Source: Psammoneis japonica
Taxonomy: Eukaryota
NCBI GenBank assembly: GCA_008632985.1
Contig: QPGO01000094.1
Span: 168,721-232,720 of the forward strand
Direction: 5' to 3'
Length of the DNA stretch: 64,000 nt
Shown here: piece after piece, positions 11,662 to 38,733 of the stretch
Position numbering within the stretch: position 1 is the stretch's first letter
Layout of the letters: the number at the start of each line of letters is the position of its first letter
Made by a program: the position numbers and the translations under genes
The notes under the pieces: generated by a model
What the model was told of the DNA's origin: nothing
Databases searched by the model: none
Seen by the model: the letters and a program-made list of their open reading frames with translations, nothing else

Positions 11662-12882
11662 TTACACATGCCGGACAAACGTAGTATGAAGCTCAACGTC
11701 CGTGAACCAGGCTCTCCACTCCATACACATGGGGTCAAAATAAACGTTAACCTGACTCAAAACATCTGCATTTCCCTCGAACCTTCGTGAAAAGCGCCGC
11801 GTATTTATTTCTTGCTGCGCATCGTACTGAGAGCGAATATTCTGCAAAGTGCCTGATCTCCGTGATCGACGTCCTTCGTCATCTGTTTGGGTTGTAACAC
11901 TGTCCACTGCTGGAGGGAGACCGTCTTGACTCTCCACGTTTGTTGTAGGGCGAACCCCGCAACCCGTGCCACCGTTGCGTGACACATCAACCACCCGACA
12001 CAAAGACCTTGCCGTTCTTCTTGCGCCAACAGAGTGGCCAATTTGTTCGAAGAAATCTGTAGCATCTCGGCCGGCATAAGCCATAAGTGTGTCGGGAGAG
12101 CCAGGATGTAACTGAAGAAACGGGGTCAAGTCGTAGATGTGACCATGCAAACCGACAAGGCAACAGTCTGAGGAGTTGTTTCCAGCAAGTACATAGTTCA
12201 AATATGATTCTCCAAATAAAAAGTAGAAGGTTTTGTCAAAGCGAACCTCCATTGCAGTTTCTTGGGAGCGACGCAGCGCCTTGCGTCCCACCTCCCAAGA
12301 GTGCAAGATCCACGCATAATCGCGATACCACAAATTCTTCCACAACGCCGCTGAGGTGTCCCCAGCATCAACAAGACGTTTGCACGAGCGACTTGCACAC
12401 GCAAACGAAACAACATCTCGAGGGTGCAGGTAGGAGAGTATATGGACTTGCACGTCAGGAGCGAGCTTTTTCGAAAGGAAGCCGCAGTCTTCTGTGTGAG
12501 TTGTATGTCCGTTGGTAGTCTTCGTCGTCGCCGATAATGAGTGGCAGCCAACAAACAAGCTAGCCCATATTTTCATCACGGCCGCGACCAGCAGCTCGCC
12601 CGAACAATAATTGCCAGCACCTTCAAGATCGTCCCAAACAGGGTCATCCCAGAAAGTCACAGAGGGTGGATCCTCGCCCTGACGAGGTGTTCTCCTCGCT
12701 CTCTTGAGAGCCCGACTCTCTGTTTCATCTTCGGCATAAACATGATTACAACTCATTTCCTTTCGATACACAGTGACAGCACTCAGGATTGTTAGCAGCA
12801 CTATCTGTGCGCCGTAGAGACGCGTATAGTAAACAATAACTTGCGCCCAGGGATAAGCTGGTGCACTCAAGAACTTTGTCAT
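11662..12882 (-). CDS. F-box-like plus cytochrome b5-like heme/steroid-binding domain protein
   Basis: LAPDVQVHILSYLHPRDVVSFACASR (F-box-like) and LVGLHGHIYDLTPFLQLHPGSPDTL...GRDATDFFEQIGHS (cyt-b5 HPG motif). Confidence 0.85.
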   Translation of the reverse strand: MTKFLSAPAYPWAQVIVYYTRLYGAQIVLLTILSAVTVYRKEMSCNHVYAEDETESRALKRARRTPRQGEDPPSVTFWDDPVWDDLEGAGNYCSGELLVAAVMKIWASLFVGCHSLSATTKTTNGHTTHTEDCGFLSKKLAPDVQVHILSYLHPRDVVSFACASRSCKRLVDAGDTSAALWKNLWYRDYAWILHSWEVGRKALRRSQETAMEVRFDKTFYFLFGESYLNYVLAGNNSSDCCLVGLHGHIYDLTPFLQLHPGSPDTLMAYAGRDATDFFEQIGHSVGARRTARSLCRVVDVSRNGGTGCGVRPTTNVESQDGLPPAVDSVTTQTDDEGRRSRRSGTLQNIRSQYDAQQEINTRRFSRRFEGNADVLSQVNVYFDPMCMEWRAWFTDVELHTTFVRHV

Positions 12883-13194
12883 ATTTCAAAAGTCGGAGAA
12901 AACTTTCTGCGAAGAGGTGTGTGGAGCAGAACACAAAGCGGATATTAAAGAAAATGACGTTTTCTAGAGAAAAGGATAAGAAGTTCTGCTTCGAAGCTTG
13001 AAGGATGATCGCAACACCACACAAAAGGAGACAAGAACAACGAATTGGGCACCGGTATGATGCACTTGGTGGGCAGCTTGTTGGTGTCAACACAGCGAAC
13101 CTGCTGAACACACCGCGTGTGTGCTCGCGGCTCGCGGCGAAGAACAATGTTACCGCTTGCCTGTACCGGTACCAGGTTCCCCTATGCCTACCGT

Positions 13195-13761
13195 AGGGCC
13201 CTACGTAGAAGATGTACGAGGAGTGAGATGCTATACTGTCTGATTTCAGATTGTCTGTCCTACTCTACACTCTAGAGAGCAGCAGCAGCTACGAGAGCAA
13301 GGTTACCTTCATGAGATGGAGAAGAATGCAATGGAAAATGGAAACTTAAGCTGGTAGCTGGGTCAAGGATTTATGGTAGTCCTTGAGCTGGGTCATGTGC
13401 TTTTCGATTGATGGCACGCGCAGCATCTCATGCATGTGCTTTTGGCAGCTGGGCACTCTGCTGGCTGGACCAACATGGCTGTCCCCATTCGAAATGACAA
13501 CCATCGTGCACAATTCAAAAGGAATTTGTTTACAAAATGTGGGCACACATTCCTCAAGCAAAAGCTTGTGAGTCACTGACAATTTTGGCCAAGTGTGACA
13601 AAGTCCACAATCTTGAACTCTTCACTTGAATCTTTCAGAATCGAGTCCGTTCCATCAACGCACACCAGCTCACCCTCGACACCAATGTCCGCACCACCCG
13701 TGACCAACACCACATCGTGTTCCTTCAGTGGAATGATCGCCAATTCCCCTGCGTTTGCTGA
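13195..13761. repeat. Direct duplication, copy 1 (partner 46751-47298): intergenic DNA plus the SPT5 3' end
   Basis: Alignable by eye from AGGGCCCTACGTAGAAGATGTACGAG through GGTTACCTTCATGAGAT to CAATTCCCCTGCGTTTGCTGA. Confidence 0.95.
13566..13761 (-). pseudogene. Mutated copy of the SPT5 C-terminal coding segment
   Basis: GELAIIPLKEHDVVLVTGGADIGVEGELVCVDGTDSILKDSSEEFKIVDFV matches 47104-47298. One frameshift, and the stop codon TAA has become CAA. Confidence 0.93.
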
Positions 13762-14042
13762 CAGATGATGGGCCAAACATTTGCCAAAAAGGCCACAGTC
13801 CGGCACGCTGAAGTCATCCAAAGACATGGACGTCAGTCATTTTTCCGTTGAGACGACATGCCAGCCCATTTCTTGAACTTGAACTTGAGCCTGCAGCATG
13901 GCATTTGTGTGCTCGCAGTGAAGAACACCAGGTTCCCCTGTGCAGAAGATGCACCTTGGGTGCACCAGCACGCAGCGAGCATGAGGAGTGAGATGCTGTC
14001 TGTCTGTCTGTTGTGCTGCCGCACCAAGATCAGATTTGCACC

Positions 14043-17000
14043 TGCTCCATGCTCGAAGAACAAGCACAAACAAAAGTAGAACAAAGTGCAAAAAGTGGAA
14101 ATTTTGAGATTAAATTTCACTCTGTGATTTTTGGTTTCTCCAAATGAGCTCTCAAAGGCCCAGAGAGCTTCTGCACTGCTTCTGCAGACAAAAGGCCTTT
14201 CGGAGAATGTGGTCGTGACAACAGATTGTCCGGATGCGATTGCTGTTGACACGCAAGATGTCAACATCATCTGTTGATTTCATTTGCAATTTTTGACTTC
14301 CAGTCAACTCTGTGTGATTGTTCTGTCCTTTGCACGCATCCACGATTGTGGCACGATTGTCACACATGCAACGTGCAATTGCGCACATGTGTGCAACAGT
14401 TGTGTGCTGCACTCACCTCCCCAATTGTGCACAGGAGTCACTCATCAAGTGGAGTCATTTGATGGACATTGACAGTGTCAATGATGTCTCCACGTTGACT
14501 GCATTGTGCCATCAGCAATGACTGTCATTGTTCAATGAGCCAGCGCGGGGCTGCTCCAATTTTCGTGTGTCTTTCAAGAGTGTCACATTGTTTGTCTCTC
14601 ACACTCCATGTGCACACACATGTGGTGTCACATTGAGCATTCTCTCTGATGTCATTTTGTTGATGTGGACATGTTTTGATGCCTCAGTTGTCAAGAACCA
14701 ATTGCCCTGCTGTGGCTTTCATGGCATCAGCTGCACATTGTGGCGCTTTGCCCTGTGCTTGATGTGTGCTCTTGATTGTGGTGTTCACTTGCTTGTGGAT
14801 TTTGTGTGGCTCTGGTGGGCTTGCTTCATGTGCCACATTGCTCTGCTGCACTTCCATGCATCATGAGCAATTGGCGATGGTCAAGGACATTCTCTCAACC
14901 ATTTTGTCCTTGCAGTCCTGTGACGGCAATGAACTCCTTTTTTTGTTGCTTCAACCATCTTTTTCTTTGATTTCAATTGTCACTTGGACCTTTCTTTTTG
15001 ACATGTCGGCATCATTTTGTCATTCCCGAGGCACTGCTTTTGTGCACTGAGGATGCAAATGTCCATTTTTCTCATGTGTTTTGTTTTTGAATCTTTGGCA
15101 CATCTTGTGTGTCGACGTGACACATTTTTTATGTTGTGTCTTGCCTCACACATTTTACATTGCAACCGTGTCGGTGTTGTGAGATTGTCTTTTTTGCCAG
15201 TGTGAAGTGGGTGCATGTGATGTGCGCCAATCTGTCACTGTGATTTTCCAGCCATCTTTAATGTGATGATTTTGTCCTCACAACATGAGCATTTGTCGAT
15301 CTTGCTCACCTCCATGAAAAGTGTTCACATGATGTGTCGTGTCCAACAATTTAGAGGGAATGTCTTTGTTCCATTTTAACAGTTTGGGACATTGTCGCAG
15401 GATTCAATTTTGGACAGCAGTTTGGCTGATCACTTCTGCAACAATGTTTGCCTTGCCCATGAAAAAAGACATTCAGGGATGTTTCATTGCGTGTCAACAC
15501 ATGACTGCTGTGTTCATGGAGAACAGGCAATCTGCAATGTTTGCATCTGTTGGCCAAATGGCACATTCCGGAGCCTTTCAGGTTCTCAATTGTGAGCAGG
15601 AGTTCATTTTCTGTTGGGGTGCATTGTTTTTCATTGCCCTTTTTTGACATTCGGGTGACAAAACAATGCAGTTTTTAATGTGATGTGCTCCACATTTTTG
15701 GAGACTTTTTGTTCTGCACTTGTCCTTTTGCCATTTGACCTTCATTGAGGTGAATTTGGCTGTCAGTGCACAGGAGATTGTTGAGACTGCATGTCTTGAT
15801 GGCAGTGATGCTCATTGACAAGATGTCACAATGTTCTTTGCATTTTTTCTCAGTGTTGCAATTGCCTGAATCACCTCCATTTTCTTTGTGATCAAACACA
15901 TGTTGTTGCACATGAAAGTCTTGACAGTTTGTTTCAAGTTAAGCAGCAAAGGACTTTTTGTTGTCAACCTTCAAAGCAACTGCTCCAGTCACACAAGCAC
16001 CGTTTCAAGTTTTGTTGTGCAGGCGACATTTTGAAGCGACATTTTGTCAGGCACAAACAATCATTTGCAGTCATTCTGACAACTCCAAACCTGTTGTGAA
16101 TTCACTCATGTGTTGTGTGAAAATGTCTGGGGCTCTGCAGATTCTCATTGGAGGTCTGTGGTGCTCATTTTCCTTGGCGCCATTTTTGTGTGAGCATGAC
16201 GTGTGCTTTTTTATTTGACATGGTGGCATTCCATGTTTGAATCAAGTGAGATTGCATGCATGAAATGTTTTTGCTTCAACGGCATTTCCTGAATGTTGGG
16301 CAAAGGATGCACCATGTGTGCAAACCTTTTGTTGAGCTTCTGAGTGTTGGGCGAGGTCAAACTTGACCTGTTTTCTTTGGACAATGAGTCTCAGAGCAAC
16401 TTGTTCAGGGCAACTTCATTTTTAAGACTCCAATCTTTCACAATTGGTCAAATTCCTTTCAATTGGATGCCTCCAAAGACCACGACAGGAGAAGGTTCCC
16501 ATGCGATGTGGAACCACACCAGATTTTCAACGTGAGATCTGCTGGTTCTTCCCATTCATTTGTCTGAGGAACTTTTCAAAAGGGTTTCAAACCTCTTAAG
16601 AAGAAGATTGAGTTGGCTGCACTCTTTTGGGTTGGGTGTGTTGCTGCAGCTGTCACTTCATTGGAGTCAATGGTGTGATGACATGAGTCAAGGACCATTG
16701 GTCCCATCATTGACTCCATTCACAGCATTGTGTTTTTCAATGTGATCGGCAATCAGCTGGAAAACATTGGCATCAAAGAGTGTGTGTCAACATTCTTCAC
16801 AGGTGCAGTTGCTTCTCTTCCCACTTGATTTCTTCATTTGCATGGTCCAGTGTGATTCCAAGACTGGACATTGAGTCATGTTCCATGATCACATCATGTG
16901 GACTTGAAGAAGATTGGGTGTTGTCAACATGTGCCGTTGTTTGCATCATCACATGCTTGTCAGATTCAGGTGAAGAGAACCGCGCTGAGCAGCGACTGTC

Positions 17001-17340
17001 AGTTGTGAAGAGTCCACCCTTGGTTTCCCAAGTTTTGGTGGCGGATTTCTTCATTCCCAACTTCCACATGAATTTGCACAAAATTGTGGTTGATGATGTT
17101 CTTTGTCAAGAAGAACATGCAGAAGCTTGTTTTTTGCTTTTCTCAGAGAAGCAGCCACATGAACAGCGACGGAGGGACTGGCGCTCCTTGAGTGGTGCAA
17201 ATCTTTGATGGGAATTGATCGGGGGTCCATTTTTCCAAATTGATGGTTTTGTTCACCAAGCATTTTAGAGTCACAATTTTCACTCTTGTTTTTACGTTCC
17301 TTTGTCAAGGAACTCGCTTCAACTGTTTTTGTGAACTGCC
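14043..17340 (-). mobile_element. Old hypermutated Ty3/Gypsy LTR retrotransposon (3' LTR 14043-14411, pol relics); same family as 25717-30292
   Basis: LTR aligns to 25717-26083, with an adjacent PPT-like CTCACCTCCCC. Protease relic VLLD...WETKGGLFTT...HVD...HDVIMEHD.MSSLGITLD and RT relic HPLPNIQEM. Order is protease then RT toward the 3' LTR. 5' part truncated. Confidence 0.85.
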
Positions 17341-20300
17341 TGGGTCATCATGGAGCTCAGCTCCTCACCATCGTGTCTTTCTGGTGCTTTCTGCTTTTGA
17401 CAACATTGTGAATTGCCTTGTGGTTTCTGCACAATTTCACAACAATCAAATGTGGCATGGTTTGTGTGGGGGCCTGCAAGTGTCATTCAGTGACAGCACA
17501 GTTCACAGCTTGTGTCACGGTCAGCCATGCGACGCACATGCGGACAGACTGCACCTCGTGGAGAACAGCTCGTGCTGACTCAGTGGGGATGATGTCGAAG
17601 ACACCTCTGATGTTGCTGACGTGGATGGGTCATAGACCGTAGCAGCAGTGAGCCTCTAAAGCTCACAATGTCTTCACAAGACAGCTTGCCAAAATGTGCA
17701 CTTTGCTCACAAGACCTTTCTTGCCATGCTCGGTCTCCTTGGCGGCAGGTCAAGACAGCCCTGCCACAGCACTGCAACAGGGATGCAATGAAGGACTGTG
17801 CTGTTGTGCTTTCTGTTTTGCGCTGTTGTGCTGCAAGCACATGTTGTGATAAAAAGTGCACCAAAGCGTGCATCTTGCTCACTCCCCTTTTTTTGCCTTG
17901 CTTGGCATCTGTCTTGACAGCCACTCAAGATGGCCCCGATGACAGGCAGTGTTTTGCAGGATGATTGCAGCTTGCAAAATTTGGGGTGGAAACAAGGGCA
18001 GAGCTTGAGTGCTTGCTTTTGTGTGTCATTCTGCAATTTCACATGATGATGTGTGAAAGATTGCCAAATGTGCATTTTGAAAAAGCTCAAAAAGAAGGAA
18101 ACGAATCAAAAGAAACAACAACAGAGGTGGGCTGCAGGGTGGTTGTGTGTTCAGAGAAAGTTTGCATGATCCCACTGTTGCAAAGCTGGTGAAGGCATCA
18201 AGAACAAATCCAAACGTGTCGGTCAAGAATGGCCAGATGAAGACTTCATGGTGTGTTCAACTTGTTGGCAAAAAGAAGAAAACCAACAAGTCATTTGCAG
18301 TTTGCTCCTCCTGCTCTGTTGAATGAGCCACATTGCAAACTGTTTCGATTTTGGGATCTTGGCGTTGCCAGAATGTGCTCCCACTGTGCTTTGCTCTTGT
18401 GCTCTGCACTCTGTTGATTAAGCCACATTGTGAACTGCTCGATTTTTGGGCTTTTTGTGTCACCATGGTGTGCTCCTGCCATGGCTTTGTAGTTTGTTCT
18501 TGCCACTCTGTCAACTGAGCCGACTTTTGGGCTCTTGACATTGCACCATAAAATGCTCCCACCACAGCTTTGTGGTTCACTCTTGCCCTTCTGTTGATTG
18601 AGTCATGTTGCAAACTGTCTCAACTTTTGGGCTTTTGGTGTTGCCACAGCATTCACTTTCTCTAGTGTCAGGTGTCAAAATCACCCCCGGCATGAAACAC
18701 ATGACACGTCACTTGTTGCAAAGCCAGTTTCCCTTGAGAACTGTCCTGCAAGTGTTGGTCTCAAAAAGACCAGACGGAATTTCTCTTCCTTCTTGTTGTT
18801 GCCATGCTTTGTCCCGCAAAAGCAAATCTTGCACTCCTTGTCACTGCATGAGGCACTGATGCCATCCCTTGTCCGCAAAAGTTTGGACACACCATGATCC
18901 CTTGCAAGGGCGGCAGTCTTCCCACTCTTTCACAGTTGTTGTGACTGCACCAGTCAAGCCTCCACATGCTGCATGTTTTCTCAAGGATGTCTGCAGCAAG
19001 GGACCACACTCCAGGAAGAAGATTCAGAGACACCGAGCTCACTCACAACAGAAAGCCTGTTGTCAGAGGGCAAGACAATCCAAGCCCATCTGTGTTTGAC
19101 AGACATCTTGGAAGATTCCAGTTTGGGTCATCTTTTGAATCATGTTTTGATGTGATCAAAATGGATTTGTTTGCACTGGAGTTAGACAAAATGTGGAGTT
19201 TGCCAAAAGTTCTGGATGAGATTGCAGTGCTGGGATCACTTGGACAGATCAAAACAGGTTGCAGCTTGTTTGCCAGTGGCTTGCCCTGGTCGTTCAATGT
19301 TTGAATCCATGCTCTTCCAACCTGGGGTCATTCCACACTTTCTTCTTGTGTGGTCATTGATGACCACAATTTGTTGACATGGGGTCATTGCTGGCTGGAC
19401 TGTCAAGAAGAGCCAAAAAGCAAGGACCATTTCAAGGCCCCAATTCAATTGATTCCAACAGGATGGTGACAAAAAATGCAACAAACAGTGTGAGAAACAT
19501 TTTGACAGCAACTGCAGTGCAACAACATCGCACACAACACTGGCATTGGAGTGACTTGCCAGAAGATTTTGTGACCATTTCACTTTGGTTGTCACCCTTC
19601 TGAAATCACAGTCATTCACAAGACACACTCTTGTGCAGCTCAATGCAAGCATCTGTTGCACCATTTATGAGGGGGTGAGGCATGGGCTGTTGGCATTGTG
19701 TTGTGGTTGGTTGTCTTCTTGTGCTGGTGTCCTCTTGTGTTGCAAGTTTGAGGTTTTTGATCACAAGGAAATGGTCAGCCCAAGACAAGGAAGAAGGCAA
19801 GGAAAAATCTTTGTGCACCAAGATCTGACATGGAGTGCAAGCCCAAAAGCCAAGTGCCATTGTCACATGGAGCACAACTCACCATGACAGCCATCATCAA
19901 TGATGGACAATGCGGGTGGCCAGAGAAAGCTCAATGAGCTCCTCATTGACAAGTGCATCTGTTGAATGACTCTTCTCCCAACTTGAGCTTGTTGTGGACT
20001 CAACTGGAGAAAATGTGCTGGAAGAGAACAAGGGAGTGTTGTCTCCTGCTTGTTCTCAAGTCCTCAAGACTGTGGTGGTGCCCAAGGGAGTCTGCTTTGC
20101 TTGTTGAATTTGGTGTGTTGAAGTGTGTCAGCAGCTGCGGGCTCCAGACAAGTCGACCGCTTGATGAAATGATCATGTCAGTTGCAACTGTGCAGCAAAT
20201 TGTGATGACAATCAATTTTTCCTTGTCTGGTTTCCTTGTCATTCCTTGTCAAGGAAAGTCAGGGTCAAATGAGGAATCCTCTACAATCGAAAAACCTGTG

Positions 20301-20650
20301 CAGGTTGAAAAGAATTTTCCGGGTCATTGATGCAATCGTGAGTGTCATGTGGGTCTGGCCTTTGTGTTCCACCGTGCATTGTGACTGAGACTCATCGTCC
20401 AATCTCTCTTTGCCCAGTCTCAATTGCTTCCAAGTGGCAAAACATTTGACAAAAACCCAAATGCATGGCGATCAAAAACTGCTGTTTTTGAAAATGGTCT
20501 GTTGCTTGCTCGGGTCTTTTCTCTGCACACCCAAAGGAACCCGGGTGTCTCCATGCACAACTCCCGTGCTTCCTTCCCCATTTCAAAAACTCAGCACCCA
20601 GGTGAGTGACACCTGCTGGAAGCCTTTTCATGAGGTCACTGCCCCCTTTG
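17340..20650. other. Hypermutated unclassified repeat/TE relic DNA
   Basis: Near absence of TA and CG. No motif I can assign. Confidence 0.45.
18315..18635. repeat. Degenerate ~90-95 bp tandem repeat, 3-4 units
   Basis: Recurrent CTCTGTTGAwTrAGCCACATTGyrAACTG...TTTTGGG at ~18315, ~18409 and ~18590, plus a partial unit at ~18505. Confidence 0.7.
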
Positions 20651-20655
20651 CAAGT

Positions 20656-20968
20656 GGTGCTTCTGGTGCAGGGGGTCAGAGCTTGAGATGTGGTGCCCAT
20701 GGGGGTCATTGGGGGAAAGTGCACAAGTGCCTTTCTGTGTGAACTTGACACCATGCCATGTTGGGCACTTTTGAAAGCTCTTTTCTGACCTTGAACAAAG
20801 GCCAGCAGTGCAACTCTACATGTTCATGGTGCACAGCCACCCCACAACCACACATCCCACACAACACAACACACAACAAACAACACAAGTCACTTGTTGC
20901 AGCCAACACCAAGTGAGTCTGAGAACAGCAACAGAACCCCAGCCCACTGGATCAAAGGGGGCCAACCT
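20656..20968. repeat. ~315 bp dispersed direct repeat, copy 1 (partner 23890-24208)
   Basis: CAGGGGGTCAGAGC...GATGTGGTGCCCATGGGGGTCATTGGGGGAAAGTGCACAAG...CCCAGCCCACTGGATCA.AGGGGCCAACCT shared. Confidence 0.9.
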
Positions 20969-23190
20969 TTTCATCACCTTCTCAGGCACAAGAACAACAA
21001 GTTGCAAGATTTGTCTCAGTGCCCACACAGAGCAAGTGCTCTGCTGAACATGAGTCATTCTTGAAGCTCCGCAGAGCTGCTCTGCAGAGCACCTTTTAAT
21101 TGCCACCAGCCTGATTGCTCACAAGTGTTCTGTTGCTTCTCTGTTGCAGGAGAAACGGTTCAGTGATTGTCATTGTGCAGGATGCATTCATCTCAATCTG
21201 TTGCCAAGGGACATGGCAGAGCCCCCTCTTGTGTCCCCACACTTTGGAAAGGCAGCCAAGACCAAAACAAGGGGCAACACCAAGGAAGAGATCAAGGTTT
21301 CTGCCCTTTGGTCCAAGCTGACATGCCAAACTTGTGAAGCTTCACAAGCACTGCATTGACCTGATTGAGATGGAAAACAAAGGCAGTGCAGTGCTTGGGC
21401 CCATGAACCCATCCCTTGGTTGCCACTCCAGGAAGAAAGACGTGTGTGGAGAGCTCGCACACTCTGCTGGTGCAGCCAGTTTTCTGCAGACATTCCAAGC
21501 CAGACAGGATGTTAGAAACCAGAACACCATCTTTGACCATGTTGAAGGCACGCCAAGGATGGACAGGAAGAGTGGCAAAGCAGTCAATGGTTGGAACACC
21601 AAGATTTTTGACAACAACATTTGTGGCGGCTGCCCTCCTTTGATCTCTGACATTGTGACAGAAAAGCAAAAAGTGCACAACTTTGTTTCCTTTTTGTTCT
21701 TGCACATTCACGGCCACTCCAACAGCTGTTTGGATCTCATGGCTGCTGCCTTGCTCAGGTTTTACAACAAAATGACCAATGTGATCAAGAGCAAACCACA
21801 TGGCAAGTGGTCGGAAATTTCCACCCATCCCTTGGTGAGTGTGGTGACAGATGCTTGCAGAAGAGCAAACATGTCTGAGTGCACCTTTGACGCATTCCAG
21901 AAGCAGGTGGGAATCCATGTGACATTGGGCCCATGGAATTCTGTGTGCAAACTCTGCAGCAAAATTGTCAGGCAATGAAAATGTCAATGATCGCCAACAG
22001 AAAATGAGGCAATTTTGCGAATGCACAAACTCGTCCACGATTGAAGTGCATCATTTTTGCTCAGCCAGGTGCACTCATCAGACATTGAAGGATGCAACTG
22101 GTGCATTGTTGTTCCCATAAATTTGTCATGCAAAACATCTGGGGCTTCGCAAAACAGCAAGTCTGGACCAATTTTTTGGAATGTCACATGTGGAAATGTG
22201 TGTGTGAAACATGCAATGAATGACAAAAAACAATTGTGTCACACATCAGCACTGCAAGCTCCCACCCAGGGCTGGAACAAGTCCTTTCAGGCATGGCAGG
22301 TGGAGGTGCACAGTGGTTTCATTTCAAGGAATCTTCCTTCCCTGCCTCTCAACTGCCATCCTGACTTGCAAACCCAGCTGGTTGATTGCCAGGCCCTCAT
22401 TTCTGTGCATCAGCACAGGCAAGGATCATGGGTGGACTTCTTGGTGAGTTTCGAAAATGCTCTGCAGAGTTGCTCTGCAGAAGATGCTCTCTGAAACATT
22501 GAAACCTCATTGATCTTGGTTCATTTGCCCATGTTCTGCAACTGACAACACCAGGTTGAGAGAAGAGCTGAGTGCCCTGCGTGGCACCAGTGAGCAGGAG
22601 CTGAAGAGCAAGATGGACAGGGTGGTGGATTTGTTGCTGAATGGGGGTGGCGCTGAAGGCATTCCTGCTCCAGCAAATGAGCCAGTGACACGCGGTTGCA
22701 CACGACATGCTTGGCACACAATGGAGGTGACACCAAAGGCAAGAATCCAGCAGAAATGTTTTTTGATTGGTTTGCAATCTCCACAGTGGGTGCAAATTGT
22801 GCAAGGCTTCAACAACAGGCAAGGTGAGACAAGATGTGAAAAGTGCACTCAAGTGCCACAAGGCATTGATTGATGTGCTGCTTTGTCTTGGGGGAAGGCA
22901 CCCACAACCATGTCAAAACTCTGAAGTGCCAAGCCATTTGCAACATTGGGAAAATGAGCTTGGTCAGCTTGGCTGTGATGCACTTGAGTTGGCGAAGTCA
23001 TTCTTTGCAGCCAAAGGTGCTGACAAAGATGACATCACAAATGTCTTCTTGGCAAACAAGCGTCCCCTCCATCTGCAAAAGCCAGTCCCTTCCAGATGAC
23101 ACACCAGAGAACAGCCCTTTCCAAAAAAGGTCAAAAGTGGAAGCAAGAAGAAAAGGAGCAGCAATGTTCAAATTGGTGAACCCCAATCAG
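20969..23190 (+). mobile_element. Crypton-like tyrosine-recombinase element relic, copy A (5' truncated; ~370 bp insert at ~21910-22280)
   Basis: CHSRKK (HxxR-like motif)...DVRNQNTIFDHV (expected catalytic Tyr position). Colinear with 32800-35370. Confidence 0.7.
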
Positions 23191-23889
23191 TGTTTGAGAA
23201 AGCAGGCTGCAAACTTCACCATCTCAGGGAGGACACATTCACACTCTGCACCCAGAGCACCTCTGCAGAGCACCAGCTGATTGGAGTGCTCTGCCGAGCA
23301 TCCAACGAGACACTGCAATGATCTGCAGAGCATTTGACGTCTGCAGAGTTGATCTGTGCAAGTGTGCCCTAAGATTGCACACAGCCAAGACATTGTTGCA
23401 GAGTTTCTGTCTGCACGCTGCTCAGATTGCTGCAGAGCTGCAATCTGCACACTGCTCTGATGCAAGCTGCTCAGCCTGCAGCTTGACAAGATTGTGCTTG
23501 TCAAGGATTGCAGTGCATTCTTTGTAAATTAAGCCATTGGCAGTCAGGGTTCGGGTGCTCTTGAATTCCAATGATGCACAAGGTTGAAGCCATTGCACGT
23601 GTGCCATGCCAGAGCTTGTGTTGCATGTGGATCCCACAGTGATTTCTCCAGTGCAACCCAGGTTGGCACCATGCAGGATCACATGGGGAGGCTCCTGGGG
23701 TCAGCGGGCCAAAACCAGGGGCAGCCCAGGGAGGTGCAGTTCAAAACCTCTGCACATGCGCAGAGGTGCACAAATTGTCTGTTGTCATCTGCACACGCAT
23801 TCGCACACTCAGAGTGCACACCTCTGTCTGTGCACTGCCCTTCGCGCGGGGTCACTGTCCCCTTTTTTTTGCTCCACATGCATGCACAT

Positions 23890-24208
23890 GGCACTTCCAG
23901 CACAGGGGGTCAGAGCTCAAGATGTGGTGCCCATGGGGGTCATTGGGGGAAAGTGCACAAGCACCTTTCTGCACAAACTTGACACCATGCTGTGTTGGGC
24001 AATTTTGACTTGCTTTTGAAACCTCTTTTCTGACCTTGAGCAAAGGTCAGCAGTGCAATTCCATGTGTTCCTGTTGCACAGCCATCCCACAACCACACAC
24101 ACCACACACAACACAACAAATGACACAAGTCACTTGTTGCAGCCAACACCAAGTGAGTCTGAGAACAGCAACAGAACCCCAGCCCACTGGATCAGAGGGG
24201 CCAACCTC
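23890..24208. repeat. ~315 bp dispersed direct repeat, copy 2
   Basis: Aligns with 20656-20968. Confidence 0.9.
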
Positions 24209-25716
24209 TCTCTGGGGAGTTGACCTCACCATGGTGGACATGCCACCACATCTTTTTCAGGTGAGTTCATTTGCACTGCATCACGTTCCAAGGAAGATGC
24301 TGCACCACTGCCCTTGTCTGTGTGCTGGTTTGTCAAGCTGTGTTGATCAATGCTCTGTGGAGCATCTTCAGGACTGTGCTCTCTGGAGCAGCTCTGCAGA
24401 GCACCCCTTTGCACTTGCCACATTGCCTGTCTCACCCTGCGCTGCTTTCTCATGCAATCCCTGGACTGCACCAAATCGTGCAGATGCCATCACACGTGCT
24501 GCTTGCCGTCAATGTCTCCAGTTCTTGCTGACTCTCACTTTGCCTCCAAAGTGTTGACAAAAATTCAGCAACAAGCTGTGACAGCCACATTCGCCAAATG
24601 TGGTCACAACAGGAACACAAAGCGCCTGATTGTCCTTTGTGGCCTGCAATCTCTTGGTGGTGGTGGATTTTGATCTCTTGATGTTGAGCAGGGCATTGCC
24701 CAAATGCAACAGCTGTTGAAACATTCTTGTGGTGCACAGCATCTTGTGCAAGACGACCAACCACATGCTGCGGTCCACATTGCCATTGCATGGAATCAGC
24801 TGCACTTGGGTGCGGGTGTCAGCTTCCTCAGAGATGTCAGCACTCCTCATCCACACAGCAAGTTGCTGTGGTTTGCATCAGTTTGGTCCTTTCCACAGTG
24901 CATTGGAGGACACACTGCACTGTCCCAAGATGGTGTCCTCCCCTTGCAAAGAGCCAACAATCAGTTTTTAATGGATGTTGCCCTGGAGTCACAAGAATTT
25001 TCTTCTCGAGAGCTCCAGTGGATCAATTGTTGCCGCTTGCATCTTTGGGTCCTGACAGTCTCAGACATTGCTCTGGCAAACGGGTGTTTCTCAGATGAAT
25101 CCAAAGTTTGTGGGGATCCCATGTGCCTCAGCAGCATCAGCACTCTCAACAACGTTGAACAGACAAAACTGTGCCACCGTGCATGGGGTCCTTGGATGCG
25201 GTCATGTGGGTTGTTGTGTCATCAAGACTCAGTTCGTCTGAAAGCTCCCTCAGGAGACTGGCCAGTGCCCCCATCGAAAATGAGGATGCAATGTTCTGCG
25301 CACTGGTCTCCCAAAGAGTCATGCTTGTGTGTTTGATCTCCATCAGGATTTGATGTTTTTCCAGTCCAGGACACTGTGACTGCGTTGCCACACCAGATCG
25401 AAATGGTTCCCTCCCCCTCTGACTCATCATTCCCAGTTGAGATTGTCTTCGTTGATGATGGCAGATGGAAATGCATCCCTCATTGCCTGAAACTTTTAGT
25501 TGAAACAAATCCACCCTTGCCCAATCTTTTTGCAGACCACTTGAAAGCATTGCCTTCCTGGGAGTCCTCTCTCTTTTCTGACATTGAGTTCCACATTTCC
25601 TTTTACGAACTTGTGGACCATTTTGCATCAAGTCACCTGTTGGCGGGGAGTGACAGATCTGCACTTTATCAGGACGCCACCTTTGGATGGACTGTTGCAT
25701 TCAATGGCAGACCCTT

Positions 25717-26083
25717 TGCACTATGCTCGAAGAACGAGTGTAAACGAAAGTAGAACAGTGTACGAAAAGTGGAAATTATAAGATTGAATTTTGCTCTGTG
25801 ATTTTTGGTTTCTCCGAACGAGTTCTCAATGGCCTAAAGCTTCTGTACTGCTTCTACAGACAAAAGGCCTTTCGGAGAATATATTCGTGACAACAGATTA
25901 TCCGGATACGATTGCCATTGACACGTAAGATGTCAACATCGTCAATCGATCGTATTTGCAATTCTCGACATCCGATCAACTCTGTGTGATCGTTCTGTCC
26001 TTTGTACGCATCCACGACTGTGGTACGATTGACATATAAATAATATATAATCATAAATATGTATATAACAGTCGCATACTGCA
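25717..26083 (-). repeat. 3' LTR
   Basis: TG...CA termini, adjacent PPT, near identity to 29926-30292. Confidence 0.95.
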
Positions 26084-29000
26084 TTCGCCTCCCTAATTGC
26101 ACATTAGAGTCATTTGTAAGTGGATTATTCGACGGACATCGACAGTGTCAATAATGTCTCCACTTTCACTGTATTGTGCCATTAGCAATGACTGTTGTTG
26201 TTTTGTATAGGCAATATAGGGCCGTTCCAATTTCCGAATGTCTTTTGAGAGTGACATTGTTTGTTTCTCACTTAATATGTATATATATAGTATTACGTCG
26301 AGTATTCTCATTGACGTTCTTGTTGATATGAACACAAGGACTAATTGTCCTGGAGTAAGTGTTTTTCCTGATATCGATTGTACATAGCATCGTGCCCAGT
26401 ACTTAATGTACGCTCTTAATTATGGCGTTCACTTACTTACTTGTGGATTTCATGTAGTTTGGCGGGCTTACTTTATATGCCATATTGCTCTGCTGCACTA
26501 CCACGTTTCATAAGTAATAATAAACGATGGTCAAAGATATTATGACCATTTCGTCTTGATAATCAATCCTGTGATGGTTATGAATTCCATTATGGATTTT
26601 TTTTTTTTGTACTTCAACCATCTATCAGTTGGATTTTAATCGTTATTTGGACGTTTCTTTCTGACATACCGGTGTTATTTTGTCATTCCGAAGGCACTGG
26701 TTTCGTGCACTAAGTGGATAAATGTCCATTTTTCTTTTCTTTTTTCTAGATCTTTGGCACATCTCGTGTGTCGACATGATGTATATTTTAATGTCTTGCC
26801 TCGTACATTGTACAATACAACCGTACGGGTGTTGTGAGATTGTCTTTTGCCAGTGTGAAGTGGATACGTATAATGTATACCAATCTGTCACTGTTTTTTC
26901 CTAAATCGTCCTTTAAAAAGGCGATTTTATCCTTGTGACATGAGCATTTTTCGATCTCGCTCGCCTCCACGAAAAGTGTTCGTATGATATGTCGCGTCCG
27001 ACAATTTGGAGGGTATGTCTTTATCCCGTTTTAACGGTAGGACATTGTCGTAGGATTCAATTTTCTATAGTAAGTCGGCTGATCGCGTCTATCGCGACGA
27101 TGTTCGCCTTGCCCTCGATGTATTTTATTTCGGGACTAGAATTCTGTATTCTAAGTCGTCAACGCATGACTTTGTCCGTTGTGTCTTATGATCCTTATAT
27201 GTATAAATCTGTTGGCCAAACAGTATATTTCGGAATTTTATAAGTGTTTTCACTATGGACAGAAGTTCTTTTTTCCGTTGTAACGTTTAATATTGAAATA
27301 CGTGTATGATAACAATATAGTTTTTGATTTGATACGCTCCATATTTTCGGAGACTTTTCGTTTCGTACTTGTACTTTTGCCGTTTGACCTTTATTGAGGT
27401 GGATTTGGCTAGAAATGTACAGGAGATCATTGAGACTACATGTCTTTATAGTAGTAACGTATATCGACAAGCTGTCGTAATATTCTTTACGTTTTGCTCA
27501 ATGTTGCGATTGCCGGAATCGCCTCCATTTTCTTTGTAATCGGATGTATACCGTTACGTATGGAAGTCTTGATAATTTTTTTCAAGTTAAGTAGTGAAGG
27601 ACTTTTGTTTTTAACCTTCTAAGCGACTGTTCTAGTCGTTTGAATGCCGTTTCAAGTTTTTCTTGTACAGGTGACATTTTGAAGTTATTTTCTGTCAGGT
27701 GTAAATGTTCATTCTTAGTCGTTCTGACAACTTTAAACCTGTCATGAGTTCGCTCATGTGTTGTATGAAAATATCTGGGGCTCTATAGATTCTCATTGGA
27801 AGTCTATAGTACTCAATTTCCCCCACGGCAATATTCTGAGGTGAGCACAACGTGTGCTTTTTTTGATTTTACATTGTGGTGTTCCATGTTTGAATCGTAA
27901 TTTCATTTTTAAATCTTCAATCTTTCATAATTGGTTAAATTCCTTTCAAATGGACGCCTCCAAAGACTATGATAGGAGAAGGTTCTCACACGTCGCGTAA
28001 TCGCGTCAGATTTTTCACGGTGAGATCCACTGGTTCTTCCTATTCATGTCCAATGAACTTTTTCAAAAGGATTTTAAACCTCATAAGAAGGAGACTGAGT
28101 GGTTTATCTTCTTTTGGTTTAGATGTATTGCTGTAGCTGTCACTTGATTAGAATCGACGGCGTGATAATGTGAGTCGAGAACCATCGGTCTCGTTATTAA
28201 CTCTATTCACTGTGTGATATTTTTCAATGTGATCGGTATTCAGCTGGAACATTTTGTATCGAAGAGTGCATCAACATTCTTCATAGGGTAATTGCTTCAT
28301 TCCCATTTGATTTCTTCAATTGCGTAGTCTAGTATGATTGCAAGACTGGACATTAAGTCGCGTCCCATGATCATATCATTCGACCTTGAAGGGTATTTGG
28401 TGTTATTGACATATACTGTTTGAATATCAGTAAGTCTTAAATTTCGCATAGTGAGAACTGAATTCGGTGTTTACTATCAGTCGTAAAGAGCTCACCCTTG
28501 GTTTCCCAAGTTTTTGGTGGCGGATTCTTGTGTTCTCAACTTTCGCACGAATTTGCGCAAAATTATGGTTGACGATGTTCCGTTATCGATAGGAACACGT
28601 AGATGCTTTTTTTTTTCTCCTTTCCCAAGGAAGTATTCATATAAATGATGACTCCTGGACTAGTATGAATTATTTCTGCCTTTTTTCTAGGCTTCCTAAT
28701 ATCCAGTAAAGCATATAATTCGTGAATAGACCAAAATTATTCTTCGGATTCAATCTGGATCATCCGATCAAATTGGTATTTTTCTTCACTGAGGGTATCA
28801 GAATCTGATTCTTTGCCCTTATGCTCTTTTTCTTTGTTCAAGGAACTCGCTTTGAGTGTTTTTTGAACCGCCTGATCAATCATGACGTTCATCTCTTTTT
28901 TTGCGAGCGGCATTTTCGTTATCGCGACGCGACCGCGTGCGATTGCCATTTGAACGGCGCATTTTTGGGTCTCTTTCAGAGTCACCCTTGCACTCTTTTG

Positions 29001-29925
29001 CTAGTTCATTTTTAGAATAGCTTCAATCCGTGATGTAGGTATTCTTTTTTCAAAGATAAGACCTTGCATTCACTTTGGATTGTTCTGGTACCATGTGAGA
29101 GACCATTTTTGGAACCAAATTTGGAACCTTTTTTATTTTGGAACCAACTGCGCTATCAGAGCCTGAGTTGATATGTTTTTTCGTCACGGACGTCATGAAC
29201 GACCTTTAGATGACTCAAAACTTAATCAGCTCATCAAGGATGAGTTGCAATAGTTGATTGTTTTGGACAGTAGACTGATGCTGCCATCCTTGCGGTGCGA
29301 GTGATAGCTGATAAATCAGCGCTCGGTTTCCCGCTAGATTCGACTTAGAATCCATCTGAGGGTCGTATAGACTCTCATCGTTGACCTCTTGGGTCTATCA
29401 GAGGCTTTCTTGCTGTTGAGCGGCTCTGGTTTCTTCAGGTCGTCTCGAAGATAATTTCCCTGATTCTGAAGTGCATTTCCTCGGAGGACATGAGTTATGA
29501 GACGCTTGAGGTACTTTCCAACGATTCCATCTTGCTCTTGGACTCGAGGATCATCGATTCGGTCTCAAAAAACTCTCCAATAGTCTCTCCTTGCATGGTA
29601 GACATATTTCTCGGATCTGATCGACTCGGAACTTGCATTTTCTGCAACCATGACTTGGTGTAGATTTTTTGATAATGCGGTGTACTTGAGAGCCCTTGAT
29701 CCTTGGGTGCTTGGAATAGACCGTATTAGAGCGAATCCTCTTGTTTGGTAGACGAAAAACAGCGTTCCATCTTGAGGTACTGCTCGGCTTGAGCTTCTTC
29801 CGCTCGGAAATCGATTCCAGCAGAACTGATGCGATTCGTTCCTGTTTATAGAAGAATTTGCAAAGGCACATTAGTTAAAATCTTCATTTTCCGTGCTTTT
29901 TACCTTCTGTGGTGTGTATACACAA

Positions 29926-30292
29926 TGCACTATGCTCGAAGAACGAGTGTAAACAAAAGTAGAATAGTGTACGAAAAGTGGAAATTATAAGATTGAATTT
30001 TGCTCTGTGATTTTTGGTTTCTCCGAACGAGTTCTCAATGGCCTAAAGCTTCTGTACTGCTTCTACAGACAAAAGGCCTTTCGGAGAATATATTCGTGAC
30101 AACAGATTATCCGGATACGATTGCCATTGACACGTAAGATGTCAACATCGTCAATCGATCGTATTTGCAATTCTCGACATCCGATCAACTCTGTGTGATC
30201 GTTCTGTCCTTTGTACGCATCCACGACTGTGGTACGATTGACATATAAATAATATATAATCATAAATATGTATATAACAGTCGCACACTGCA
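29926..30292 (-). repeat. 5' LTR
   Basis: TG...CA termini, followed by TSD CCTT. Confidence 0.95.
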
Positions 30293-32049
30293 CCTTGGTG
30301 GATTGTGCTGGTCTGGTGTTTGGTCAATTGCCATCATCCTGTCAAGCTGAGGCGCATGGTTTCCTTTCACTGATTCAGTTCTTCTGTTGTTTGATTGAGT
30401 TCTGCAAGATGTCAAAGTGTGAAGGAGTCAACAACTGGTGCGACAACAAGGCCTTGGTCCAAGTCCTTTCCAGACTGTCCCACACCAGCCACCCCTCCAT
30501 TGACCTGTTGGCACAAGAGCATTCTGATGGAGACTTTCATCTGCATCAGCATGATGCCAATGTTCTTTCTTCCGACTGGGATGTCATCAATGAAATGCAC
30601 CCAATGCTTGAAGTCATTTCTCAGGTTCTTAATCCCTCCTCCCCTGGTCAGGCTCCGTCAACAGCTTGGGCAAAAGGACACCAGGACAGACAGGCTCTGG
30701 TTGAAACCCTCCCACTCAATGCACAAGCAAACGTGCGTGCTGACAAGTTGGCAGGACAACACCAGGGACAATGCGACTCAGACACAATGGAGCTGATCCC
30801 CCTTCCCCATTGCCAATCATGCCTGAGCCTCACTGATGGAACGGTCACTGCAGGACTGAAATCTGTGGTCAGATGTGCTGCTGCAGCTCCCGCTCTGCTG
30901 GCATGTGTTTGGGAAAGGAACGACTGGGATGAATCGATCACAGAAAAGATTGACTTGAAGGTTCATGCAACATCAGTGTGCAGGCATTCCAAGAAACACG
31001 TTTCCACTGTGAAGCTCATCCATGAGCTCCTCCCAACAAACAAGATTGCTCATCGACACAACCCCGTTCAGCCACATCATTGTCTTGTGTGCGAATGCCC
31101 TGTGGAGGATCGAGACCATGTTCTGGGGTGTCCTGCCAATGAGGCCTGGCATCATAAATTCCTGCAAGGTCTGCGAAAATGCTGTGACAAAATTGATGCA
31201 ATGCCACCTCTTCGCGATCTGCTGTTGACTTCACTCAAAGCATGGCCAAGAGGTGAGATGCAGTGTGAATCTGACATCACCCTGATGTTGCGAGCACTGT
31301 GGAAAGCCCAGTCAGAGATGGGATGGTGACAAGAAGTGTTCAATGGAAGACACTCCACCCTTTGGAACGTTTTTCAGGAGATGCACCTTTGTAAGATGGG
31401 CCTGTTGGAGAAATGCAGGAAGGAGAATCGACCCCCTCCAGTTTGGGGAGTGCAGATGGGAACTCAAATTTGGAAGTCCTGGTGGGAACTGTGGGAAGAA
31501 CACAATGAAAAGGTTCACGGTCACAGTGCAGAGTCAAGGAAATCATCTTTGTGCTGTCAGGCAGAAGCCGAGCTCATGGCTGTTTACAACAGCAAATGAC
31601 AGGATTATTTGGCTAAAGGCAGAGAGGTGCTGATGGATTCAGTTGACGAACACATGTCCCACTCTACATTGTGGATCATGAATTGGGTTGCTGTGGTCAA
31701 ACCACGTCTAAAAGACAGCCTTAAGAAAGCGAAGCGCGAAGTGCTTCATGGCACTTGCTCAATCGCTGGCTGTTTTGGATGGGTGTCATCTCACGGTGAC
31801 ACCCCGTCCGGCTGATCCCAACAAGCTTCCGCCGCACTTAACAGTGCACTGGAAGTGTGGGCCAGCCAGCGCCAGCCTGGCTGGCAAAGGAGTGATGGCA
31901 CTTAAAACACAGATCTGGTTTTTTTTTGCTTTCTCATGCAATCCTCCAAGGACAAATGCTGCCCATTGTGATTTTGCTGGTTGGGAAGAATCCATGATTG
32001 TTGTGGAACAAGAGCAACAGTCACTGTTGGGCACTGTTTCCCTCAATGA

Positions 32050-35000
32050 CAGTGGTCAGCAGCTGACTTGGGAGGAAGCTGCGTGCTCAATGCTGCCCCA
32101 TTTCATGTGCGTTGCAACCACTGATCTGCAGAGCACCCCAATGGAGAATGGTGATTCTGCCTCAGCATGCACAAGTGATCATGGCACCTCTGGTTTGGTG
32201 CTTGCTCCCTGTGGTGAGCAGGGGGCTGAGGAGACAGAGAAAGACAAAAAGGAGAGAAAGTGCCTTGGTCACTTCAGGCGCCACTTGTTGCACTGCAGGA
32301 ACACACGTGTGGCCGCAGAAGATCTCCGCCATGAAGACATCACCCATGATCTCATGAAAGGGTTCACCAAGTGTCTTGCCAAGGATGCCAGGTTGCAGTT
32401 CAAACTGGAAGGGGACCATCTCTCTTTTGGATTGGCTGCAGGCTGTGCCAGCACTGCCAAGATGCATTTTGTGAACAAGTTCCCTGACTGTCCAACCCCG
32501 CCCACTCTGCAGGACTCAAAGTGGACCAGCACGCTCAATGGAATGAAGGGCATCATCTTGGATTGTTGCAGGATGGAAGGAACTGATGTTGTGAAACCCC
32601 ACAAAGCCTCAACTGAGGAAGACAGGGAGGCCTGTGCTGCTGTCTGCCTCCATGAAGGAGATTCGGAATCTGCCAAGTTTTGCTTTCATTCGGTGTCCAT
32701 GCAAGCCTGTGTTGGCCGGAGCACCAAAGTTGCTCTGTCACAGAAAGCCAATCTGTCTGTGGAGGTGCAGCACAAGGAGACACTCACCTGTCCTGTCATC
32801 ATTCATTGCCTTCTCAGGCACAAGAACAACAAGTTGCAAGATTTGTCTCAGCACCCGCACAGAGCAAGTGCTCTGCTGAACATGAGTTGTTCTTGAAGCT
32901 CTGCAGAGCTGCTCTGCAGAGCACCTTTTAATTGCAACCAGTCTGACTGCTCACCAGTGTTCCATTGCTTCTCTGTTGCAAGAGAAATGGCTCAGCAATT
33001 GTTGTTGTGCAGGATGCATTCATCTCATTCTGTTGCCAAGGGACATGGCAGATTCCCCTCTTGTGTTCCCATGCTTTGGAAAGGTGGCCAAGACCAAAAC
33101 AAGGGGCAACATCAAGGAAGAGAGCAAGGTCTCTGCCCTTTGGTCTGAGCTGTGTGCCAAACTTGTTGTGAAGCTTCGCGAGCATTGCATGACTTGATTG
33201 AGATGGAAAACGAAGGCCCGCCCATTTTTTTTCCCAAACGTCCATCATTTTTTTTTTGGCGGCAAGCCCAATGTTTGTGTTCAGACCTTCACACATTTTA
33301 TGACAAGCAATCAATGCTTGTGAGTTGTCGATCAATGAAGTTAAACATCCCAAAAATGCAAATGCTTTGTGTGTGTCAGATTGCATGGTGTGGACAACCC
33401 ACATGGAACAACACACCTGCAAACACAAATGTTTGACATTTCAAATTTTCCACAACTTCTCAAAATGCAACAACAATGGTGACTGCAAATGCAACACACT
33501 CCATCAACAACCACAAACTCACCATGGCACTGCCACATGTCAACAGCTTGTAATTCATTTCAAATGCATGTGCCTTGCTGTGCTTTGAAATTGATTCATT
33601 GCAGCAAAAACAGCTGAAATGTTCAATTTTCTGCCCATTGCTTTTCGACCACACACAAGTCAACAATGAGCTTGTTGCACTCTCACATGTCAATTGTGCT
33701 GCACACAAGTTGACAAGATGTGATGTGCTGTTGATTGTTGTGGCTCTTTGGGGCAATGCCATTGAGAAAATGGTGACCACAGAGTCACCATGGTGAGGTG
33801 GTTTTTGCGGTTTCCAGCTGCAGTGCACCAACGGTGAACTTGCACTGAATCTGAGTCATGCTTGTTGAGTTGGCATGGCTGCCGCTTTGCGCATCATGTG
33901 CCCACCATTCTCAGTGCTGGGGCTGGCAGCAAAAAAAAAAGGCAATTCACCAGGAAAAAAAAACAACTAAGAAATGAAGGCAAGCAGTGCAGTGCTTGGG
34001 CCCTTGAACCCATCCCTTGGTTGCCACTCTGGGAAGAAAGACATGTGCAGAGAGCTCACACTCTGCTGCAGCTGGTCTTTTGCAATGTTCTGAGCCGGCT
34101 GGGATGTTAGAAACCAGAACACCACCTTTGACTGTGTTGAAGGCATGCCAAGGATGGACAGGAGGAGTGGCAAAGCAGCCAATGGTTGGAACACCAAGAT
34201 TTTTGATGACAACATTTGTGGTGGCTGCTCTCCTTTGATCTCTGACATTGTGACAGAAAAGCAAAAAGTGCGCAACTTTGTTTGCTTTTGTTCTTGCACG
34301 TTTGCAGCTGCTCCAACAGCTGTTTGGATCTCCTGGCTGCTGCCTTGCTCAGGTTTTACAATGAAACAACCAATGTGATCAAGAGCAAACCACATGGCAA
34401 ATGGTTGGAAATTTTCACCCATCCCTTGGTGAGTGTGTTGACAGAAGCTTGCAGAAGGGCACACGTGTCCAAACGCACCTTTCAGACATGGCAGGTGGAG
34501 GTGCACAATGATTTCATTTCAAGGAATCTTCCTTCCCTGCCTCTCAACTGCCACCCTGACTTGCAAACCCAGCTGGTTGATTGCTGGACCCTAATTTCTG
34601 TGCATCAGGCACAACCAAGGATCATGGGTGGACTTCTTGGTGAGTTTTGAAAATGCTCTGTGGAGCAGCTCTGCAGAAGATGCTCTCCGGAGCATCAAAA
34701 CTGCACTGATCTTGGTTCACTCACCCACATGTTCTGCAGCTGACAATGCCAGGTTGAGAGAAGAACTGAGTGCCCTGCATGGCACCAGTGAACAGCTGAA
34801 CAGCAAGATGGACAGGGTGGTGGATTTGTTGCTGAATGGGGGCGGCGCTGAAGGCACCCCTGCTCCAGCAAATGAGCCAGTGACATGCAGTTGTGCATGA
34901 CATGCTTGGCACACAATGGAGGTGACACCAAAGGCAAGAATCTAGCAGAAATGTTTTTTGATTGGCTCCAGTGCAATCTCCACAGTGGGTGCAAATTGTG

Positions 35001-35370
35001 CAAGGCTTTGACAACAGGCAAGATGAGACAAGATGTGAAAAGTGCACTCAAGCACCACAAGGCATTGATTGATGTGCTGCTTTGTCTTGGGGAAGGCACC
35101 CACAACAGAGTCAAAACCCTGAAATGCCAAGCCATTTGCAACATTTGGAAAATGAGCTTGGTCAGCTTGGCTGTGATGCTCTTGAGTTGGCAAAGTTGTT
35201 CTTTGCAGCCAAAGGCACAACAAAGACATCACAAAGACCTTCTTGGCAAACAAGCACCCCTTCCATCTGCAAAAGCCAACCTCTTCCAGACAACACACCA
35301 CAGAACAGCTCTTTCCAAAAAGGTCAAAAGTGGAAGCAAGAGGAAAAGGAGCAGCAACGTGTTTCAATGA
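32050..35370 (+). mobile_element. Crypton-like tyrosine-recombinase element relic, copy B (insert at ~33210-33975)
   Basis: LSFGLAAGCASTAKMHF, VGRSTKVA (GRxxE-like first Arg), HSGKK, RAGWDVRNQNTTFDCV. Colinear with copy A. Confidence 0.7.
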
Positions 35371-38605: not shown

Positions 38606-38733
38606 ATTACCATTCCGTGTACTTTATTACCATTCTGTGTACTTTATTACCATTCTGTGTACTTTATTACCATTCTGTGTACTTTATTACCATTTTGCGT
38701 ACTTTATTACCATTTTGCGTACTTTAATACCAT
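38606..38733. repeat. 20 bp tandem repeat (ATTACCATTCTGTGTACTTT), 6 full units plus a partial unit
   Basis: Units start at 38606, 38626, 38646, 38666, 38686 and 38706. No spacers. Confidence 0.97.

Follow-up and report, generated by a model that had tools for sequence, protein, structure and literature searches.

Probable position-targeted hypermutation at TpA in a repeat island of the diatom Psammoneis japonica

We analysed a window of 64,000 nt of nuclear DNA from the diatom Psammoneis japonica (contig QPGO01000094.1) and find that a repeat-rich island of 20 kb within it has lost nearly all of its TA dinucleotides and most of its CG, with a matching surplus of CA and TG. This composition is probably the product of a position-targeted A:T→G:C hypermutation at TpA, acting in silenced, repeat-rich DNA and accompanied by CpG decay. 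A dead fragment of the host gene SPT5 lies astride the island boundary and provides a natural experiment, from which the direction of change, its relative rate and its positional targeting can be read. The loss of TA in this SPT5 copy, which a sequence-only reading of the window had singled out, is the edge of the larger feature. In the searchable literature, we found one prior description of TpA-specific A:T→G:C hypermutation that affects selected DNA, a 2026 preprint on a chlorarachniophyte; the window shows the same signature in a diatom, near completion over 20 kb.

The island is flanked by ordinary host genes, encoding a 2Fe-2S protein, a histone-fold NF-Y-like protein, a NUBPL-type ATPase, an F-box/cytochrome-b5 protein, a trypsin-like peptidase, an RRM protein and a bromodomain protein. 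Using tblastn with two diatom orthologues (P0011 and P0001), we located an intact SPT5 gene of about 5 exons at 47104-50825 on the minus strand. Residues 6 to the end of both orthologues are covered over 50825-47107, so that this SPT5 is full length. A search with its last exon (47107-47520, minus strand) recovers 149 homologues (E ≤ 0.001). The top-ranked ones are diatom SPT5 proteins, 69-76% identical, and those with names are from Seminavis, Nitzschia, Thalassiosira and Fistulifera. Tandem GGATPMH heptads at 47901-48380 (minus strand) form the C-terminal repeat region of SPT5, and a 36-bp perfect direct repeat is found at 47674-47743, 5' of the last exon.

Self-BLAST places the dead fragment copied from the SPT5 3' end at 13299-13761 (minus strand), with 89% identity to 46837-47298, a segment that comprises the last SPT5 exon and its 3' flank and represents the source-like state of the duplicate. 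The duplicate is made up of about 265 bp of 3' flank and 195 bp of coding sequence. Specifically, 13566-13761 corresponds to the final 64 codons plus the former stop, and 13299-13565 to the former 3' flank. The copy contains one frameshift, its stop is turned into CAA, and in tblastn searches it matches orthologue residues 998-1052 only, i.e., the last ~55 residues. The duplicate possibly starts at 13189/46745, where the alignment is poor, and this leftward stretch is excluded from our counts. A further match of 30 bp, 90% identical, connects 13984-14013, on the right side of the SPT5 copy, with 46787-46816, on the left side of the segment at the gene locus, and the same link also appears as a Logan contig joint. 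Too short to interpret, it hints at a duplication with a more complex origin, possibly circular or template-switch.

The sequence-only reading had claimed that all seven TA in the coding part of the copy are converted, four to TG and three to CA, that the stop has changed from TAA to CAA, that three of 12 CG are changed, and that about four other substitutions and one indel complete the differences. A MAFFT alignment of 13566-13761 with 47104-47298 (196 columns) reproduces every one of these counts. TA is replaced by TG at gene coordinates 47105, 47115, 47287 and 47293 and by CA at 47203, 47245 and 47250; the TTA at 47104-47106 is the minus-strand stop TAA, which reads CAA in the copy. The changed CG sites are 47223, 47263 and 47296, and the remaining differences are four substitutions (a CA/AG double, one T/C and one C/G) and one single-base indel. 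The contrast between TA (7/7) and CG (3/12) is significant by Fisher test (p=0.0031). Counted by base, change at TA (7/14) also exceeds that at bases outside TA and CG (4/157, p=1.3e-6), and a comparison of CG bases (3/24) with the other bases gives p=0.05.

Over the whole duplicate, 15 of the 18 TA at the gene locus are altered in the copy, all 15 to TG or CA, while 5/19 CG are changed. TA is retained in the copy up to 13377, and from 13405 on, 14/15 are converted. Inside the island, changes thus affect 14/15 TA, 5/19 CG and 13/283 other bases. The corresponding survivors (1/15, 14/19 and 270/283) indicate that TA is lost ~9x as fast as CpG and ~30x as fast as background per dinucleotide, both being rough rates from small counts. 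The earlier claim that TA conversion outpaces CpG decay is therefore upheld in this young copy. The contrast in rate is clear here, whereas the older repeats are near saturation for both dinucleotides.

We polarised these changes with the SPT5 C-termini of other diatoms, using 118 of 120 proteins and leaving out two (P0110 and P0119) whose C-termini do not align. Four of the seven TA sites can be polarised by protein. At 47293, where the gene encodes V and the copy A, 98 outgroups have V and one has A. At 47250 (gene M, copy V), M is found in 66 and V in none, and at 47287 (gene V, copy A), a variable site that carries less weight, V is found in 43 and A in 13. The gene shows the commonest outgroup state at all three of these non-synonymous sites. 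As for the stop (TAA in the gene, CAA in the copy), 86 of the 118 proteins end at the same residue and none is more than two residues longer. The other three TA sites are synonymous, so that proteins cannot polarise them; by analogy, TA is probably ancestral there as well. The differences that do not involve TA are likewise derived in the copy, the outgroups being uniform for P and for A (118/118 each) and having V in 113/118. The direction assumed at the outset, loss of TA from an ancestral state preserved in the functional gene, is thus borne out wherever proteins can test it, with the gene's residues and stop, rather than those that TG or CA would encode, prevailing among the outgroups.

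The left boundary of the island, at about 13380-13405, falls within the SPT5 duplicate. The erased DNA extends from there in a left part (13400-25716) and a right part (30293-38300), which together cover 20,326 bp. The last dense TA lies at 13377, and TA density is back at 38426. Each 500 bp of the left part holds 0-5 TA, 2-18 CG and 99-126 CA+TG. Across the island, we observed 66 TA where 1370 are expected (observed/expected, o/e, 0.048) and 290 CG where 1173 are expected (o/e 0.25), together with 2257 CA (expected 1224, o/e 1.85) and 2340 TG (expected 1313, o/e 1.78). The combined deficit of TA and CG (2187) and the combined excess of CA and TG (2060) are near balance. In the genic flanks outside the island, o/e is 0.60 for TA and 0.99 for CG. 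Windows of 1 kb with TA below 0.25 and CA/TG above 1.5 make up 79 of 253 in this stretch and 0 of 1143 in other diatoms (335 kb on 56 metagenome contigs around SPT5), a composition baseline rather than proof that other diatoms are without the process; as these contigs are gene-rich, they are only weak evidence against a process universal in diatoms. Just beyond the right boundary, a tandem array at 38606-38733 contains 6.4 copies of a 20-bp TA-containing unit with 96% matches, and its TA are intact.

A second, small erased patch is located at 45750-46800 (o/e 0.11 for TA, 0.16 for CG, 1.71 for CA and 1.90 for TG). It adjoins the 3' flank of SPT5, downstream of the intact gene, and has no similarity to the other repeats of the window. 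At 46893 and 46915, two TA retained in the copy are TG/CA in the gene-locus flank, and erasure from this patch seems to leak ~100 bp into the SPT5 3' flank.

Without TA, the stop codons TAA and TAG are impossible, and erased DNA is consequently full of long spurious open reading frames (e.g., 13346-13621, minus strand). We count 59 of at least 110 aa in ~20 kb, four of which reach at least 220 aa, and none of the 59 has a Pfam match above the curated cut-off. Two candidate domains, zf-UBP and the KIB1-4 beta-propeller, appeared in island frames as sub-threshold, chance-level hits only. Gene finders could mistake such frames for genes.

Self-BLAST reveals several repeat families in the island, which we call LTR-type by structure alone. 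Nested between the two parts of the island is a young, unmutated LTR element (25717-30292, plus strand), whose 367-bp LTRs (25717-26083 and 29926-30292) are 99.2% identical and which has TG..CA ends and a 4-bp target-site duplication, CCTT. It is structurally complete and non-coding, with no ORF of at least 150 aa, and its composition is ordinary, with 311 TA still intact (GC 37%; o/e 0.76 for TA, 1.19 for CG, 1.10 for CA and 1.09 for TG). Normal TA density starts and stops exactly at the termini of the element and its CCTT duplication; the element inserted into DNA that was already erased. Its two LTRs differ at three positions, CG/CA, CA/TA and TA/CA, all of the CG/TA↔CA type expected of the process, which is a hint of de novo action. 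The otherwise untouched state of the element is consistent with its youth and also with a process that acts intermittently or has ceased.

An old, hypermutated copy of the same LTR family (14043-17135, plus strand) is 76-79% identical to 25717-28615. It keeps eight of the 176 TA of the young copy, and 141 of the 168 changed sites are TG (73) or CA (68). It also keeps 22 of the 113 CG, 83 having become TG/CA, and retains CA at 82% and TG at 74%. Transitions in this pair affect 43% of T in TpA and 38% of C in CpG, compared with 7-12% of bases in other contexts; specifically, T→C reaches 6.8% at TpC, 11.9% at TpG and 9.9% at TpT. Since AA and TT are untargeted, TA alone is hit, rather than the broader WA. 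The sequence-only reading had also held that both strands are affected, and the near-equal numbers of TG and CA, in this pair as in the SPT5 copy, agree with it. The strand clustering that would mark processive single-strand editing was not found in the retroelement pair (69 runs vs 71.5 expected). At about 14024-14391, summed word depths in Logan contigs of the public run X1 reach 24,000-29,000, against ~60-79 for single-copy sequence, indicating that this LTR-element family is very abundant in the genome.

Another erased repeat (20669-23164, plus strand) has a second erased copy at 32802-35357 and a short copy at 23903-24207, with 88-90% identity. Between the two long copies, 40 CA↔TG doublets account for 80 of the 203 mismatches, whereas adjacent double mismatches of all kinds together should number only ~20 by chance. 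These doublets indicate that the same ancestral sites were converted independently after the duplication, and thus that the process acted in situ over a long time.

We propose that a duplication carried 460 bp or more of the SPT5 3' end to the repeat island's left edge, where part of the copy came under a local mutational regime. The in-island part of the copy has lost all but one of its 15 TA, whereas the part outside and the parental gene have kept theirs, which argues that targeting is by position, independently of sequence origin, foreign composition and repeat homology. In each event, the A of a 5'-TA-3' on one or the other strand would undergo an A:T→G:C transition, turning TpA into TpG or CpA in silenced, repeat-rich DNA, with hits falling as independent single events that build up with time, before and after the repeats duplicated. 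The positional signal may be a chromatin or methylation state that spreads to a sharp boundary. A silent-chromatin or methylation signal is suggested by the CpG decay in the same island, as this decay is the expected footprint of 5mC; the conversion of CpG to TpG/CpA would arise most simply through 5mC deamination. Because TA loss and CpG loss are limited to the same island, they may share a targeting signal. A:T→G:C changes cannot arise from cytosine deamination, so the claim that TA loss is not a by-product of 5mC deamination holds on chemical grounds.

For the TpA component, the most likely route would be an ADAT/TadA-like deaminase that converts adenine in DNA to hypoxanthine. Such an enzyme would produce A→I, read as G, and its natural target, A34, always follows U33, which matches TpA. 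TadA's own substrate reads U-A-C-G. In our data, TAC is favoured, the A followed by C having been chosen at 34/46 informative head-to-head sites (p=0.0016), a weak preference given that only 46 sites are informative and the data are near saturation. The TAC bias resembles the ACG anticodon of tRNA-Arg, a resemblance that serves as a mechanistic lead rather than a test.

Several other explanations have to be weighed. A near-total and region-specific erasure could mimic modification-dependent miscalling, in which modified bases in repeats are misread during base calling or assembly and TA and CG are really present. We consider this artefact highly improbable, and it is largely refuted by the Logan contigs of run X1 (31-mer, word depth 60-79, longest record 315 kb), which show 0 differences from the assembly over eight stretches within 12000-17459, the SPT5 copy and erased DNA among them. 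Noisy long reads would not match in this way, which makes modification-dependent miscalling unlikely, although X1 bears the same organism label, is possibly the assembly's own sample and hence not fully independent, and has no library type on record. Two further runs add little: X2 contributes contigs only for genic DNA and for SPT5, and X3 contributes none. Moreover, the repeat copies also differ by transversions and indels, and the TA→CG doubles expected of mixed-strand miscalls are rare (5/176). Reversing the polarity, so that RIP-like C→T changes at CpA/TpG made TA and the TA-free state is ancestral, could appeal to the diatom DNMT4 enzymes, which the text of Hoguin et al. (2023, PMC9998398) describes as related to fungal RID and of unknown function. 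As a cytosine enzyme, DNMT4 cannot explain the TA changes of the island. The reversal is itself refuted, and next to impossible in our view, since the outgroups support the gene's residues and stop as ancestral and the young element has a normal rather than a RIP-type composition; the erased composition of the island, moreover, is matched by no window of the other diatom DNA. An RNA route, in which an ADAR-like enzyme edits A to I in transcripts that are then reverse-transcribed and inserted, would gain some appeal from the 5' U that ADARs prefer. It is contradicted by strand symmetry: A→G would be expected on the transcribed strand only, and the two strands are equal and interspersed (73:68), with a runs test that is not significant. 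Erasure also runs continuously over different repeats, spacers and the host-gene fragment and ends inside that fragment, the copies kept diverging in situ, and the 3' preference is for C, not G. This RNA route is therefore extremely improbable.

Two alternatives concern the chemistry at the DNA level. T at TpA in silenced DNA might be enzymatically modified, for example by TET/JBP-type hydroxylation to 5-hydroxymethyluracil, and then mispair with G or be misrepaired, giving T→C. Because T→C on one strand is indistinguishable from A→G on the other, thymine-based chemistry would fit the sequence equally well, and the regional confinement suits chromatin-directed base modification. In dinoflagellate DNA, 5-hydroxymethyluracil is found preferentially at TpA and TpC. 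TpC is not hypermutable here, with 6.8% transitions vs 43% at TpA, and the sole experimental precedent, in Bigelowiella natans, is read by its authors as adenine deamination in the available text (Mettrop et al., bioRxiv 10.64898/2026.01.13.699255, 2026). On balance, we regard the thymine route as unlikely. Error-prone repair after cytosine methylation would have frequent repair of T:G mismatches, in repeats with heavy CpG methylation, recruit a low-fidelity polymerase whose repair patches carry A→G errors. In its favour, the TA-depleted and the CpG-depleted stretches coincide exactly, CG being at 0.99 of expectation outside the island. However, in the datable SPT5 copy TA loss outpaces that of CG, and only TA is affected, with AA→AG/GA at background, unlike the WA motif of polymerase eta. 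In addition, CpG goes without mention in the available B. natans text. We judge error-prone repair very unlikely.

Position-targeted hypermutation at TpA alongside CpG decay thus remains the reading we prefer, and the diatom feature is best classed as a further, diatom member of the TpA-targeted hypermutation lately described in B. natans. In mutation-accumulation lines of that organism, two integrated viral regions, of NCLDV and virophage DNA, mutate ~1000x as fast as the rest of the genome, with changes nearly confined to A→G/T→C and all at TpA (10.64898/2026.01.13.699255). The text of the same preprint describes clustered TpA-poor, CpA+TpG-rich windows in the B. natans genome that are enriched for transposon and viral domains, proposes an ADAT2-like deaminase as candidate enzyme, and cites reported DNA activity of amphioxus BjADAT2 and Trypanosoma TbADAT2. 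The two systems have in common A→G/T→C transitions restricted to TpA, on both strands and yielding TpG or CpA by strand, confinement to particular regions (here the repeat region), and TpA depletion with CpA/TpG gain. They differ in lineage, Rhizaria as opposed to a stramenopile diatom, and in the kind of record, as de novo mutations were seen in cultured B. natans whereas the diatom process is known here from its fossil footprint alone. TpA persists in the B. natans NCLDV region (Rho 0.45), and its loss is near-total in the diatom island (0.048). The diatom targets are non-coding LTR-type repeats and a host gene fragment, marked by position rather than as foreign sequence. Finally, the diatom island shows a separate CpG component; the available B. 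natans text contains no mention of CpG, of diatoms or of a flanking-base preference. In our full-text literature search, with subscription journals outside its coverage, no paper turned up that describes TpA-directed or RIP-like mutation in a diatom. Rho for TA plotted against Rho for CA+TG offers a simple scan for the process in other genomes. If it proves general, it would add a second major form of mutational genome defence in eukaryotes, one that biases genome composition, and would point to a natural DNA adenine-editing activity.

Decay of CpG driven by 5mC would account for the CG→TG/CA half of the signature: 83/113 CG of the young LTR copy are TG/CA in the old one, and CG o/e is 0.25 inside the island vs 0.99 outside. 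CpG methylation of transposons is documented in P. tricornutum (PMC9998398). Such decay produces no A:T→G:C change at TpA, however, and is slower than TA loss in the datable copy.

RIP of ascomycete fungi turns CpA/TpG into TpA by C→T. It is a functional analogue of the diatom process: in both, defence-like hypermutation by transitions at particular dinucleotides destroys repeats and produces a marked dinucleotide skew that is sharply bounded by region. The two run in opposite directions and by opposite chemistry, however: in the diatom, TpA is lost to CpA/TpG rather than gained, and existing CA and TG are largely kept. RIP also hits both members of a duplicate, whereas the parental SPT5 segment is spared, the gene-locus copy keeping 18 TA, and the limits of erasure do not follow homology, the boundary lying inside the duplicate. 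More tentatively, and with some doubt on our part, diatoms may possess an active, chromatin- or position-guided DNA-editing defence that deaminates the adenine of TpA, is homologous to that of Bigelowiella, and is old and widespread in SAR. If so, it would act as an 'anti-RIP', removing TA, and hence the stops TAA and TAG as well as TATA-like signals, both from transposons and from whatever host DNA comes to lie in such an island.
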